From Candidatus Magasanikiibacteriota bacterium (GTDB lineage Bacteria; Patescibacteriota; Patescibacteriia; Magasanikbacterales; GWA2-37-8), in assembly GCA_030650025.1 (NCBI GenBank), contig JAUSEN010000007.1, positions 9,472-73,471 on the forward strand: DNA of 64,000 nt, read 5' to 3'. Below are positions 121 to 64,000 of the stretch, piece by piece. The position numbers and the translations under genes were made by a program. Each line of letters opens with the position of its first letter. The first letter of the stretch is position 1. The notes under the pieces are model-generated. The model was given only the letters and a program-made list of their open reading frames with translations. It was not told the DNA's origin and did no database searches.

Positions 121-152
121 AAAACCCTGTACCAGAACGGTACAGGGTTTTT
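121..152. terminator. Rho-independent-type hairpin AAAACCCTGTACC-agaac-GGTACAGGGTTTT; it sits just downstream of the stop of the minus-strand oxygenase gene and could act in both directions
   Basis: Perfect 13-bp inverted repeat with a 5-nt loop, flanked by A-run and T-run. Confidence 0.6.
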
Positions 153-249: not shown

Positions 250-1302
250 CTAGTCCTTGAAGCCGATCGCCTCGAGCTCCAGGTTGGACATCTCCCCGGC
301 CAGGATCCGGGGGTAGAGCCGAAGGATCTGGCGGCGCACGGCCGGCGGGTGAGCCCGCAGGAAGTGGCCATGGACCTGGAGGAAGCGGTCGCTGGCCACG
401 TGCACGAACACCGTGGAGCTGGAGCGCACCTTCACCTGGGAGCGGTCGTAGCCGCGCTGCGCGCGCACCTCCTTGAGCGCCGCGAGCATCTCGGGCAGGG
501 CCACCACCTCGTGGAAGCCGGCCCGCAGGTACCCGCCACTCTGCCACTCGAGCTGCTTGCCCACCTGGAACAGGAGGCAGCCCGGCGGCACCCGCACTAC
601 CAGCGGCTGCCAGTCGCGCAGCCAGATGCGCAGGCCCGGGTAGCTCGCCGCCCCGTGGATCGTACCCCAGTTGAAGTCGTAGTGGAAGGCGTTGAAGATC
701 TGGCCGAGCGTGACGTTGTCGAGCACCACTCCGTTCGGAGCCAGCAGGTGCGGGGCGTACCGGAAGTGCTTGGTGAAGGTGTTCGGCGGCAGGTTGTAGG
801 CCAAGGCCAGCATCTCGGCGATGGTCTCCACGCTCGCGAGCATCTGCGCGCCCCACCGGTCCATGTTCCTCTCCCAGCGGCCTTCGAACCCGGCGGGCAC
901 CACGTCCGGGGCATTGAGCGCCGGGAACTTGGTGTGCGCGGGGCGCGGTCCGACGCGCCGCATGAAGTGATAGCGGTCGTCCTCGTGGCCGAGCGGCGGG
1001 ATGTGGGGCCACAACTCCAGCGGCAGGTTGGCGATCAGGGCCCGGTGGTCGCGCGGCTGTTCCCGGGTCGAGATGCCCACCTGCCAGTGGTGCTCCGGGC
1101 GTCCATCCCGCTGCAACACTTCCCGCGGCTGGCGGAAGTACTCATCGAGCATGCGGCGATATTCCAGCTGGAAGTTCGATTCGACGCGGGGGTCGCGTAC
1201 GATGACCACCGACGTCGCGGCCAGCGAGTATGCCAGGCGGCGGCAATCATCCAGCGACTTGCCTCTTTCGATGTACCTTGCCAGATCGATGGTTTCGATC
1301 AT
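250..1302 (-). CDS. 2-oxoglutarate/Fe(II)-dependent oxygenase, isopenicillin-N-synthase-like / ACC-oxidase-like family
   Basis: ATG at 1302 (MIETIDLARYIE...) is preceded by GGAGA. The N-terminus looks like a DIOX_N domain. The C-terminus carries H-x-D ... H and an R-x-S-like motif (HYDFNWGTIH ... VPPGCLLFQVGKQLEWQSGGYLRAGFHEVV). GC content is far above the rest of the window. The ORF-track start at 1401 runs into AT-rich sequence and is unlikely to be the true start. Confidence 0.55.
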   Translation of the reverse strand: MIETIDLARYIERGKSLDDCRRLAYSLAATSVVIVRDPRVESNFQLEYRRMLDEYFRQPREVLQRDGRPEHHWQVGISTREQPRDHRALIANLPLELWPHIPPLGHEDDRYHFMRRVGPRPAHTKFPALNAPDVVPAGFEGRWERNMDRWGAQMLASVETIAEMLALAYNLPPNTFTKHFRYAPHLLAPNGVVLDNVTLGQIFNAFHYDFNWGTIHGAASYPGLRIWLRDWQPLVVRVPPGCLLFQVGKQLEWQSGGYLRAGFHEVVALPEMLAALKEVRAQRGYDRSQVKVRSSSTVFVHVASDRFLQVHGHFLRAHPPAVRRQILRLYPRILAGEMSNLELEAIGFKD

Positions 1303-1440
1303 GACGTGTCTCCTTTCGGTCGGCGCAGTTTTTGCGCCTTTGATAACCACCCTAACAAAGAGATGGAGAGATGTAAAGGACAGGTTGTAAATAAAAAACA
1401 CCCTGACAAAAATGTCGAGGTGTTTCCGTTTCGGAAGCGC

Positions 1441-4292: not shown

Positions 4293-4652
4293 CTACGCGC
4301 CAGTTTCGACAACAGCAGTAACAGGCTCGGCTTCGCTAACAGTTTTGGCGGCTTTTTTATCTGCCGCGGCGGCTTTTTTTTCGGCTGCTTTTTTGGCAGT
4401 GACAACCGCTTTTTTTACTTTCTTACCTTTACGCACGGCCGCGACCGCGGTTTTTTTGGCGGCGCGCTCGATAAATTTCTCGACGCGGCGAGCGGTATCG
4501 ACAAATTTTTGTTTGCCAGTATAAAAAGGGTGGCATTGATTGCAGAGTTCAACGCGGATTTCTTTAAGAGTAGAGCCCGTGGTAAAAGTATTGCCGCAGG
4601 CGCACGCAACTTTGGTATCAGTATTATATTCGGGGTGAATGTCTGGTTTCAT
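4293..4652 (-). CDS. rpmE: 50S ribosomal protein L31 with an approximately 50-aa Lys/Ala-rich C-terminal extension
   Basis: [10 protein letters not shown]...CACGNTF...[10 protein letters not shown] is the L31 Zn-ribbon signature. The ATG at 4652 sits in the CAAATCATATG context, and the ORF-track start further upstream is not supported. The tail is [38 protein letters not shown]. Confidence 0.8.
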
Positions 4653-4705
4653 ATGATTTGGCGAAATCACGTCGCGCAACGTCCTTTGAAGCGCGACGCA
4701 CAGGT
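4653..4705 (-). promoter_or_regulatory. Short copy of the recurrent 5' element upstream of rpmE
   Basis: Minus strand reads GCGTCGCGCTTCAAAGGACGTTGCGCGACGTGATTTCGCCAAATCATATG. Confidence 0.5.
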
Positions 4706-62705: not shown

Positions 62706-63608
62706 ATGCTCTTAAATATTTTATTAATTATTGTGGCTGTGGGCGTGGCGGTTATACTCGCGGTCTTAGGGCGCCATTTGCGCGAGGCGGCACAGCTTGA
62801 CGTCGATAACTTGCCGTTAGAGCAAGAATACCGCAAGAAGCAAGCCATTTTAGGGAAGCGCCTCGAGGCCGAGGGTAAAATTTTGCGCGAGCGCAGTGAG
62901 AAGTTGCTCCGGCCTCTGAAAAAGTTTTGGGATATTATTCAAACCAAATTTCGCGTTTACGTTTATAAAATAGAAAAGCTGTGGCGATACGAAAAAGTTT
63001 TGCGCAAAACCAAGGCCGCGCCCCGGGTGCCAGAGGAGCGGCAGAACAAAATCGACAGCCACCTGAAGCAAGGAGAGGAGTCTTTAGCACGCGCGACCTA
63101 TGACACGGCCGAAAGCGCGTTTATCGCCGCTATCAAGCTCGATCCTAAATGCGCGGCCGCTTACCACGGGCTCGCCAAGACATACATGGGCAGAGAATCT
63201 TGGGAGGAAGCGCGGCAAACCTTGTTATTTTTGGCTAAATTAGATCCGAGTAATGACAACGTGTTCGCGGCGCTTGGCGAAGTAGCCGAAAAATTAGGAG
63301 ATGTCGGCAAAGCTATTGAATATTACCAGGAAGCGGTAATTTTAAACGACGCGCTTTCGCCGCGTTTCTACCACTTGGCCGAGTTGCTCCTTAAAGAAAA
63401 CCAGCCCGCCGTGGCCAGAGAAGCAGTGGTATCGGCTTTAGCCTTGGAACCCAAAAATCCCAAATATCTTGACTTACTCGTAGAAACTGCTATACTGATG
63501 GGCGACCAAGACGAAGCCGAGCGTGGGTTCCAAGAGATGCGCCTGGTTAATCCGGAGAATCAAAAATTGGCGGAGTGGAAAGAGAGAATCGCGAAAATTG
63601 AGAGATAG
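62706..63608 (+). CDS. Membrane-anchored TPR-repeat protein
   Basis: N-terminal TM helix, then TPR-like repeats (AAYHGLAKTYMGRESWEEARQ..., ALGEVAEKLGDVGKAIEYYQEA...). Confidence 0.6.
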   Translation: MLLNILLIIVAVGVAVILAVLGRHLREAAQLDVDNLPLEQEYRKKQAILGKRLEAEGKILRERSEKLLRPLKKFWDIIQTKFRVYVYKIEKLWRYEKVLRKTKAAPRVPEERQNKIDSHLKQGEESLARATYDTAESAFIAAIKLDPKCAAAYHGLAKTYMGRESWEEARQTLLFLAKLDPSNDNVFAALGEVAEKLGDVGKAIEYYQEAVILNDALSPRFYHLAELLLKENQPAVAREAVVSALALEPKNPKYLDLLVETAILMGDQDEAERGFQEMRLVNPENQKLAEWKERIAKIER

Positions 63609-63619
63609 TTTTTGAACAT

Positions 63620-63703
63620 GGGCAGGTTGCAGAGCGGTCAAATGCTCCAGACTGTAAATCTGGCGGCCTCCGGCCTTCGAAGGTTCGAATCCTTCCCTGC
63701 CCA
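63620..63703 (+). tRNA. tRNA-Tyr (anticodon GTA)
   Basis: Acceptor GGGCAGG/CCTGCCC, anticodon stem CCAGA/TCTGG with loop CTGTAAA, long variable arm and T-loop TTCGAAT. Confidence 0.8.
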
Positions 63704-63721
63704 CTCGTCGTCAAATTTTAC

Positions 63722-63792
63722 GCCGGAGTAGCTCAGCTGGTACCATGAACCACAATGGTTCATGGCCGTGCACCCTTGTGGTGCACGGGAGC
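63722..63792 (+). other. tRNA-like 5' fragment: acceptor 5' strand plus a D-arm whose D-loop carries a 46-nt double-hairpin insertion, with no anticodon or T arm
   Basis: GCCGGAG-TA-GCTC-AGCTGGTA-[CCATGAACC-acaat-GGTTCATGG][CCGTGCACC-cttgt-GGTGCACGG]-GAGC. Only 11 nt separate it from the next tRNA. Confidence 0.4.
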
Positions 63793-63803
63793 AATTTAAC
63801 AGC

Positions 63804-63876
63804 GCCATCTTAGCTCAGCTGGTAGAGCAACAGTTTTGTAAACTGTAGGTCCGGGGTTCGAATCCCCGAGATGGCT
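63804..63876 (+). tRNA. tRNA-Thr (anticodon TGT)
   Basis: Acceptor GCCATCT/AGATGGC, D-arm TAGCTCAGCTGGTAGAGCA, anticodon stem ACAGT/ACTGT with loop TTTGTAA, T-loop TTCGAAT. Confidence 0.85.
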
Positions 63877-63892
63877 CAAAAAATATTAAAGT

Positions 63893-63963
63893 GCCGTTGT
63901 AGCTCAGATGGTACCATGAACCACAAGGGTTCATGGCCGTGCACCCTTGTGGTGCACGGGAGC
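63893..63963 (+). other. Second tRNA-like 5' fragment with the same 46-nt double-hairpin insertion
   Basis: GCCGTTG-TA-GCTC-AGATGGTA-[CCATGAACC-acaag-GGTTCATGG][CCGTGCACC-cttgt-GGTGCACGG]-GAGC. Only 25 nt follow before the next copy begins. Confidence 0.4.
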
Positions 63964-63988
63964 ACTAAGACAAATTGTTCAAACTAAT

Positions 63989-64000
63989 GCCGTTGTAGCT
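63989..64000 (+). other. Start of a third copy of the tRNA-like unit, truncated by the window edge
   Basis: GCCGTTGTAGCT is identical to the first 12 nt of the 63893 unit. Confidence 0.3.

Follow-up and report, generated by a model that had tools for sequence, protein, structure and literature searches.

Here, we describe two repeat units in a 64,000-nt stretch of DNA from a Candidatus Magasanikiibacteriota bacterium (contig JAUSEN010000007.1, positions 9,472 to 73,471; hereafter the window, to which all coordinates refer). Each unit is the 5' end of a tRNA gene that runs into a doublet of short hairpins, and both lie in a tRNA array within the last 400 nt of the window, on the + strand. The same doublet occurs in related genomes inside tRNA gene fragments and, at four loci, next to the gene of a small GIY-YIG nuclease that is followed by an intact tRNA gene. 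Based on this association, we consider the units of the window to be probably nuclease-less remnants or non-autonomous copies of a nuclease cassette that targets tRNA genes and has the hairpins as the signature of its end. Such cassettes apparently form a family of small selfish elements at tRNA genes of Candidatus Magasanikbacteria and other bacteria of the Candidate Phyla Radiation (CPR).

Two tRNA gene stubs at the edge of the window

The array holds two intact tRNA genes, tRNA-Tyr(GTA) at 63620..63704 (+) and tRNA-Thr(TGT), with the acceptor strands GCCATCT/AGATGGC, at 63804..63877 (+). Both are called by ARAGORN as well as by Rfam (RF00005, 58.7 bits for tRNA-Tyr; 73.4 bits for tRNA-Thr), in agreement with the first-pass annotation, which had been made from the letters alone. 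Two complete units accompany them, at 63722-63793 and 63893-63964, with 94% identity across 72 nt. Each consists of a 7-nt acceptor strand, TA, GCTC and AG(C/A)TGGTA, which together are tRNA positions 1-21, then a 46-nt pair of hairpins and 5-6 further tRNA bases; the hairpins read CCATGAACC-ACAA(T/G)-GGTTCATGG and CCGTGCACC-CTTGT-GGTGCACGG and are followed by GAGCA.

By sequence comparison, stub 1 is of the tRNA-Thr(UGU) type (GCCGGAG TA GCTC AGCTGGTA; 63722..63742, +). Its double hairpin at 63743..63788 (63743-63765 and 63766-63788; +) was delimited by pattern search, folding and covariation, the adjoining GAGCAA (63789..63794, +) matches the tRNA continuation, positions 22-27, in 6 of 6 bases, and a short A/T-rich spacer (63795..63803, +) precedes the intact tRNA-Thr. 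Stub 2, assigned in the same way, is of the tRNA-Thr(GGU) type (GCCGTTG TA GCTC AGATGGTA; 63893..63913, +) and leads into a double hairpin at 63914..63959 (63914-63936 and 63937-63959; +; pattern search and covariation). It is prolonged by GAGCA, the 3' strand of the D-stem (63960..63964, +), and separated by a 24-nt A/T-rich spacer (63965..63988, +) from GCCGTTGTAGCT (63989..64000, +), a tRNA-like start cut by the window end. These last 12 nt are identical to the start of stub 2 (12/12) and could equally begin an intact tRNA-Thr(GGU) or another stub. The anatomy that had been proposed earlier, a tRNA-like 5' start with a two-hairpin insert and closure by GAGC, holds for the two complete units; the count of at least three units does not extend beyond these two, since the third shows 12 nt only and may be an intact tRNA-Thr(GGT). 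It had also rightly been judged that the remainder cannot accommodate the missing parts of a tRNA: 10 nt (unit 1) and 24 nt (unit 2) lie between GAGCA and the next tRNA-like start, and 15-29 nt in all follow the hairpin insert.

Could the units nevertheless be working tRNAs? Neither ARAGORN nor Rfam at its gathering score calls the stubs as tRNAs, and at a permissive E ≤ 10 no Rfam family matches the units, which speaks against the earlier idea of tRNA-mimic RNAs. The stubs end at position 26-27 and possess no full cloverleaf, anticodon arm, T arm or paired acceptor stem. It had further been suggested that they are 5' halves of split or permuted tRNA genes, the 3' halves being encoded elsewhere and joined at the RNA level. 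Indeed, acceptor strand and D-arm are correct in both stubs. However, they stop ahead of the anticodon arm, intact genes of the same type adjoin them, a complementary leader for trans-splicing is absent, and a T-loop followed by CTCCGGC or CAACGGC, the matching 3' halves, is found on neither strand of the window. The split or permuted reading is largely refuted by these findings, and we give it next to no chance. Their sequence marks both units as 5' ends of tRNA-Thr genes, most likely stubs without function.

Stub 1 has closer relatives than the neighbouring gene. It differs in 4 of 26 positions from the adjacent tRNA-Thr of the window but in only 2 of 26 from the GCCGGGA-type Thr(tgt) genes of three loci in other genomes (L006, L012, L020), and at a further locus, L036, a GCCGGGA-type Thr gene occupies the place of stub 1 after tRNA-Tyr. 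Stub 1 thus resembles, in sequence, a derivative of another Thr allele than the gene next to it. Stub 2 has 1 mismatch in 26 to the 5' end of the tRNA-Thr(ggt) of L035.

The doublet lies in tRNA fragments of related genomes

A search pattern of 28 fixed hairpin bases, without any requirement for tRNA context, was run on species-representative genomes, metagenomes and viral contigs. Nine loci in species-representative genomes and 10 metagenome contigs matched, 19 in total, all in tRNA fragments and all from genomes resembling Candidatus Magasanikbacteria; the viral contigs gave 0 matches. The matches in species-representative genomes are metagenome-assembled genomes of Candidatus Magasanikbacteria and two that are labelled Gammaproteobacteria. 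Including the two of the window, 15 distinct doublets were obtained; 14 are directly preceded by GGTA and one by GATA, and each is inside a tRNA fragment.

In five loci (L003, L006, L007, L011, L014), the stub is identical to the initial 21 nt of an intact tRNA that follows on the same strand, and in L017 the identity spans the 17 of 17 nt that are visible. The tRNAs with this layout of stub plus intact gene are Leu-TAA, Thr-TGT, Leu-GAG, Ala-GGC, Ala-TGC and Leu-CAA, and the repeats from stub to tRNA bracket 15-278 nt. Past the doublet, the tRNA resumes for 2-8 bases across the loci, and ahead of a tRNA-Leu(GAG) at least two units stand in tandem (L004/L007).

Is the doublet bound to one position in the tRNA? 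In L002, L013 and L043 it follows GGTA, GATA or GGTG at tRNA position 9 or 12 rather than 21. Since GGTR is kept at differing tRNA positions, the site appears to be defined by sequence. This bears on the earlier suggestion of a palindromic mobile element aimed at the D-loops of tRNAs: GGTR in a tRNA fragment always precedes the doublet, which is missing from an orthologous locus (L036, below), but the restriction to D-loops does not hold, because the insert is also found after positions 9 and 12 and the hairpin pairs of relatives lie in T-loops and in an anticodon loop.

The two loci labelled 'uncultured Gammaproteobacteria' (L005, CAYIHE010000021.1; L008, CAYIJG010000013.1) carry the same doublets and stubs as Magasanikbacteria, and their labels may be wrong. 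Another locus, L015, contains at 1-300 a tandem repeat whose unit is the 3' part of a tRNA-Lys(CTT) with a second hairpin pair in the T-loop, 'ctagacaaactggta' and the doublet. The repeat ends as a chimera with tRNA-Arg(TCG); the contig is a 3-kb metagenome contig, and an assembly error is possible.

The doublet folds as two separate hairpins

The doublet is a 46-nt pair of 9-bp hairpins, neither of which recurred as a sequence in 100 shuffles of the window. The unit of the window folds as RNA with -37.6 kcal/mol (z = -4.2 against shuffles) and as DNA with z = -5.5. When the 15 distinct doublets are aligned, the two-hairpin fold reaches 100% pairing with 24 double-sided changes, which none of 500 shuffles equalled; of the 60 pairs at stem positions not fixed by the search pattern, four per doublet, 59 are Watson-Crick and one is G-U. 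The two hairpins had also been thought capable of folding with each other as a cruciform. Covariation backs two hairpins instead: one long hairpin or cruciform across both scores below all 500 shuffles on the same alignment, and within a doublet the two stems stay distinct.

The doublet has near dyad symmetry; its first loop is rich in purines and its second in pyrimidines. With respect to the tRNA, both orientations are found, as the loops AATAA/CTTGT (L005, L015) are the reverse of ACAAG/TTATT (L007, L009, L013, L014). The near symmetry and the two orientations suggest that recognition as DNA fits the doublet better than an RNA gene would.

Two other roles were considered and rejected. The doublets are no intrinsic terminators, as a T-run is absent and a terminator scan was negative. 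Nor do they represent an uptake sequence or a REP-like (repetitive extragenic palindromic) dispersed motif, because outside the five hairpins of the window the 9-mer motif occurs at chance level (4 occurrences, 4.6 expected).

A lone hairpin of the family is present at 125-147 (-) of the window, CCCTGTACC-GTTCT-GGTACAGGG, outside any tRNA and between A5- and T5-rich runs. It is terminator-like, lies after the open reading frame (ORF) 250-1401(-) and is an exact copy of one hairpin of the L008 doublet. The 4 kb around it have 53% GC, against about 47% elsewhere.

A small GIY-YIG nuclease gene accompanies the doublet at related loci

At four loci (L002/L018, L009, L010, L011), the 264-278 nt between the doublet and the intact tRNA are filled by an ORF for a GIY-YIG protein of about 84 aa (83-88 aa). 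It consists of the GIY-YIG domain only (Pfam PF01541, E ~1e-16) and matches the UPF0213 proteins 1zg2 (E = 9e-10) and 1ywl (E = 2e-9) of the PDB; all 13 members compared share the catalytic Tyr, Tyr, Gly, Arg and Glu without exception. The protein is too small to include a DNA-binding domain such as is joined to the nuclease in homing endonucleases. The match to solved proteins and the minimal single-domain architecture place the protein in the UPF0213/Slx1-like family. No match for the nuclease was found in PADLOC, PHROGs or NCBIfam.

Loci with and without the ORF exist side by side in one genome. GW2011_GWC2_37_14 has the ORF-bearing L002 alongside the ORF-less L003 and L006, and NC_groundwater_1735 has the ORF-bearing L009 alongside the ORF-less L004/L007. 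L016/L005 contains an internally deleted copy of the gene.

A search with the protein returned 191 homologues, all of them small; those with a named source all belong to CPR lineages, and most of the contigs are about 1 kb long. We located seven homologue contexts via the protein alone, at 48-77% identity. GC-rich hairpins lie beside the gene in 7 of 7 of them, and a tRNA or tRNA fragment in 6 of 7, with Leu, Gln (anticodon loop), Ser (T-loop, mirrored), Asn, Leu and a 3' fragment as partners. In P0010, hairpins (one of them CGTGCACC-CTTGT-GGTGCACG) inside a D-loop fragment are followed by the ORF, a further hairpin and tRNA-Leu(TAA), and P0002 has a 12-nt stub, the doublet, the ORF and tRNA-Leu(CAA). 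P0088 starts with tRNA-Gln positions 1-36, has two hairpins in the anticodon loop, GGATC and the ORF, and ends with an intact tRNA-Gln. The arrangement of P0034 is mirrored: an intact tRNA-Ser and the ORF precede a 3' fragment whose T-loop holds two hairpins. P0085 shows tRNA-Asn, two hairpins and the ORF, P0013 a tRNA 3' fragment, hairpins and the ORF, and P0047 hairpins with no evident stub. The doublet is thus associated with the nuclease gene.

Two database protein calls, P0034 (L024 1501-1875) and P0002 (L043 291-593), carry false N- or C-terminal extensions that are the translated adjacent tRNA.

Signs of mobility

An orthologous locus, L036, whose TPR gene is 55% identical to that of the window, reads tRNA-Tyr, 26 nt, tRNA-Thr and has no unit. 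Among the few loci examined, L036 and the window therefore represent an empty and a filled allele at orthologous sites. The gene order changes as well, from Tyr-stub-Thr in the window to stub-Thr-Tyr in L006. P0085 recurs as an identical protein, together with its hairpins, in surroundings that vary, namely two upstream and two downstream flanks. L010 has an intact tRNA between a 5' stub, GCGCGAG, and a 3' stub, CTCGCGC (...CTCGCGCA, with hairpins in the T-loop); the two stubs are complementary, and neither fits the tRNA between them; from these sequences, it looks as if a resident tRNA-Leu had been split and replaced.

Independent assemblies of the orthologous TPR-tRNA locus (L001, L034, L036-L038) stop 28-175 nt past the TPR gene, several assemblies in all end 30-200 nt from it, and these contig ends are consistent with repeat-induced assembly breaks at tRNA arrays. 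Genes of large serine recombinases (Resolvase, Recombinase, Zn_ribbon_recom) directly adjoin two unrelated GIY-YIG/tRNA cassettes, at L032 1796-3252 (-) and L046 1155-1621 (-). In L046, the recombinase side replaces the flank that is found in L045 and L047.

Further features of the array and of tRNA loci

A promoter-like site, TTGACT-16-TATACT with TG (63469..63496, +), precedes tRNA-Tyr by about 125 nt. It is a weak candidate, a consensus match alone with 1 occurrence against 0.6 expected, and might possibly be the promoter of the entire array of tRNAs and stubs.

A second kind of tRNA-linked insert is GC-rich, 100-180 nt long and has the common motifs GGGATGAGRA...GGCGAG...CGAAG. In L002 (415-596), L013 (247-407) and L035 (3488-3620), it is located between an intact tRNA and its duplicated 3' fragment, which begins in the T-loop, and in L039 (about 590-690) upstream of a tRNA 3' fragment. 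It has no Rfam match, and a consensus fold was uninformative, the alignment being too poor; its sequence and placement suggest that it may be a separate structured mobile element. L035 also contains a group I intron-like match at 4319-4523 (44.1 bits at a gathering score of 50; E = 1e-8), directly upstream of tRNA-Thr(GGT) at 4583-4656.

Proposed mechanism and alternative explanations

A full cassette reads in the order tRNA stub, doublet exactly after GGTR, 2-8 tRNA bases, a short leader, the gene of the nuclease of about 84 aa, and the intact tRNA. This anatomy, the association with the nuclease gene, the covariation of the hairpins and their presence or absence between loci are observed, whereas cleavage, its target, the role of the hairpins and the origin of the duplication are inferred, in the following course of events. 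The nuclease would break the DNA of a tRNA gene at or near conserved loop sequences. Repair off a cassette-bearing copy would then bring in the cassette and, along with it, either a piece that replaces part of the tRNA or a complete tRNA copy, so that tRNA function would be preserved and the displaced resident end would stay behind as a stub. Tandem stubs could arise from repeated events or from recombination between stubs. As the nuclease is without a DNA-binding domain, we propose that the hairpins are a branched DNA structure that it recognises in cis.

Several points weigh against this reading. No GIY-YIG ORF was found in the window, and local alignments of the window spacers to cassette leaders and ORFs are no better than those of shuffles (130 of 300 and 234 of 300 shuffles were as good); at their length and A/T content, the spacers could hardly yield a significant similarity, and descent by deletion from full cassettes is thus only a possibility. 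The intact tRNA beside a cassette retains the presumed target, hence simple homing-site immunity fails to explain the stability of the arrangement. The tRNA continuation varies between 2 and 8 nt, which fits two events, one for the cassette and one for the hairpin insertion, equally well as one. One homologue context, L030, has no tRNA stub. Finally, the sample of loci is small and was partly ascertained via the hairpin pattern itself.

The main rival holds that the doublet is an independent element, similar to miniature inverted-repeat transposable elements (MITEs) or to REPINs, which inserts after GGTR and survives in dispensable tRNA fragments, while the GIY-YIG gene is a separate resident or at most a helper in trans. 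The left junction after GGTR is precise, without target duplication and at three tRNA positions, the doublet is found in both orientations at the same site, the variable far-side junction fits two events, and the lone hairpin at 125-147 lies outside any tRNA. Through the GGTR precision, the variable far junction and the two orientations, this explanation retains some probability. However, all seven cassettes found by protein have hairpins beside the gene, nuclease homologues as distant as about 50% identity still have related hairpin motifs, no transposase of a hairpin-using kind was seen in any locus, and the motif is not spread in the window beyond its five hairpins. We therefore regard an independent element as unlikely, although it is the strongest competitor. 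Less credit is due to the idea that stub and hairpins are a host-selected functional RNA of the tRNA operon, whether it serves in processing or stability, as a small RNA or as a tRNA-like decoy. The very stable fold, the covarying stems and the position of the units within a tRNA array, where they are probably co-transcribed, would agree with it, but the orthologous L036 does without the unit, its position is shifted in L006, no RNA family matches, the doublet is attached to tRNAs of many kinds and also to a nuclease gene, and its likeness on both strands and its two orientations suit recognition as DNA better; a functional RNA is in our view improbable.

The first-pass annotation had also proposed att-like repeats at the edge of an integrated element beyond the window. 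In part this stands: the stubs directly repeat the 5' end of a neighbouring tRNA and flank a cassette in related genomes, but the partner is a tiny GIY-YIG gene between stub and tRNA and not an integrase island past the window end. In favour of a large island of the integrase type, integrative elements usually leave partial copies of a tRNA as scars, about 11 kb of the 74,945-nt source contig lie outside the view, and the serine recombinase genes of L032 and L046 adjoin related cassettes. Against it, the fragments are 5' ends situated 15-29 nt from the next tRNA start, whereas att repeats are usually 3' tRNA repeats around a kilobase-scale island with an integrase. The repeats of the relatives bracket only 15-278 nt, no integrase was seen adjoining the Magasanikbacteria loci, and the same architecture recurs at many tRNAs of one genome. 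We rate an island as slightly less probable still than a functional RNA.

We return to the cassette as the preferred explanation. The selfish element is apparently undescribed: a full-text literature search turned up no account in which a GIY-YIG gene of the UPF0213 type occurs together with hairpin doublets and tRNA stubs, and no Rfam, PADLOC, PHROG or NCBIfam model covers the arrangement. A bolder proposal, which we make tentatively and at clearly less than even chances, is that the cassettes constitute a new class of bacterial mobile elements. In this class, a minimal Slx1-like GIY-YIG nuclease devoid of a binding domain would be guided by DNA structure, that is by its own doublet and by the cloverleaf-prone DNA of tRNA genes, and would invade tRNA genes at GGTR and loop sites while supplying or duplicating as much of the tRNA as the host needs to survive, yielding stubs, tandem arrays and allele replacement across CPR bacteria.

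If this is true, the widespread and uncharacterised stand-alone UPF0213/Slx1-like GIY-YIG proteins would gain a concrete role as the engine of a selfish element, and they would provide an example of a nuclease that perhaps locates its target via DNA structure rather than a binding domain. The cassettes would account for assembly breaks at CPR tRNA arrays, where most gene-bearing contigs are about 1 kb long and several end ≤200 nt from the array, as well as for spurious partial tRNAs and for proteins annotated with translated tRNA tails. They would also offer a route for the horizontal replacement of tRNA alleles in organisms with minimal genomes.

Comparison with known systems

SegB, a free-standing GIY-YIG endonuclease of the T-even phages T4 and T6, has its cleavage sites within tRNA genes, is statistically linked to these genes, with which it co-localises across phages, and drives tandem segmental amplification via homologous recombination (PMC2330249; PMC13096335). 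By analogy, it may be regarded as the nearest experimentally studied counterpart of the cassette, whose GIY-YIG gene is likewise embedded among tRNA genes. SegB has two domains, includes a DNA-binding part and falls into the homing-endonuclease branch, whereas the cassette protein is a bare Slx1-like/UPF0213 domain of about 84 aa in cellular CPR genomes; and unlike the phage-borne SegB, the cassette has no match in viral contigs or PHROGs. We know of no hairpin doublet or tRNA stub signature described for SegB.

A replacement of gene ends has a possible parallel in fungal mitochondria. In 1994, Paquin and colleagues reportedly described an insertion in the Allomyces atp6 gene, in which a mobile endonuclease ORF brought along a replacement gene end. 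Such ORFs resemble the cassette in that a GIY-YIG ORF sits at a gene end with a duplicated terminal segment, the gene works and the displaced end remains; they differ in their protein-coding hosts, the duplication of the 3' end, the organellar location and endonucleases of the homing type. Fungal mitochondrial DNA also contains double-hairpin elements (DHEs), two adjacent GC-rich stem-loops which are deemed mobile by their presence and absence (PMC4618339, citing Paquin et al. 2000). DHEs and the doublet have no sequence relation, and DHEs are scattered over intergenic regions, introns and rRNA without being tied to GGTR in tRNA genes. A link between DHEs and a nuclease is not established, unlike the association of the doublet.

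Short inverted palindromes with a fixed 4-5-nt target and no target duplication are known from REP/REPIN sequences with their REP-associated tyrosine transposases (RAYTs) and from hairpin transposons of the IS200/IS605 type. The doublet is similar to REP/REPIN and IS200/IS605 as a pair of short palindromes beside a fixed short target that is not duplicated. Unlike in these systems, its motif is not dispersed in the window but confined to tRNA fragments and tied to a GIY-YIG gene, and no Y1/HUH transposase is present among the called genes of the examined loci.

By sequence, finally, the nuclease has its relatives among the stand-alone UPF0213/YhbQ and Slx1-like GIY-YIG proteins, minimal bacterial nucleases that consist of the domain without auxiliary domains and are described as vertically inherited, with a presumed role in repair (PMC1564403). 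The cassette nuclease belongs to this family, yet it is multi-copy, linked to tRNA genes and apparently mobile.

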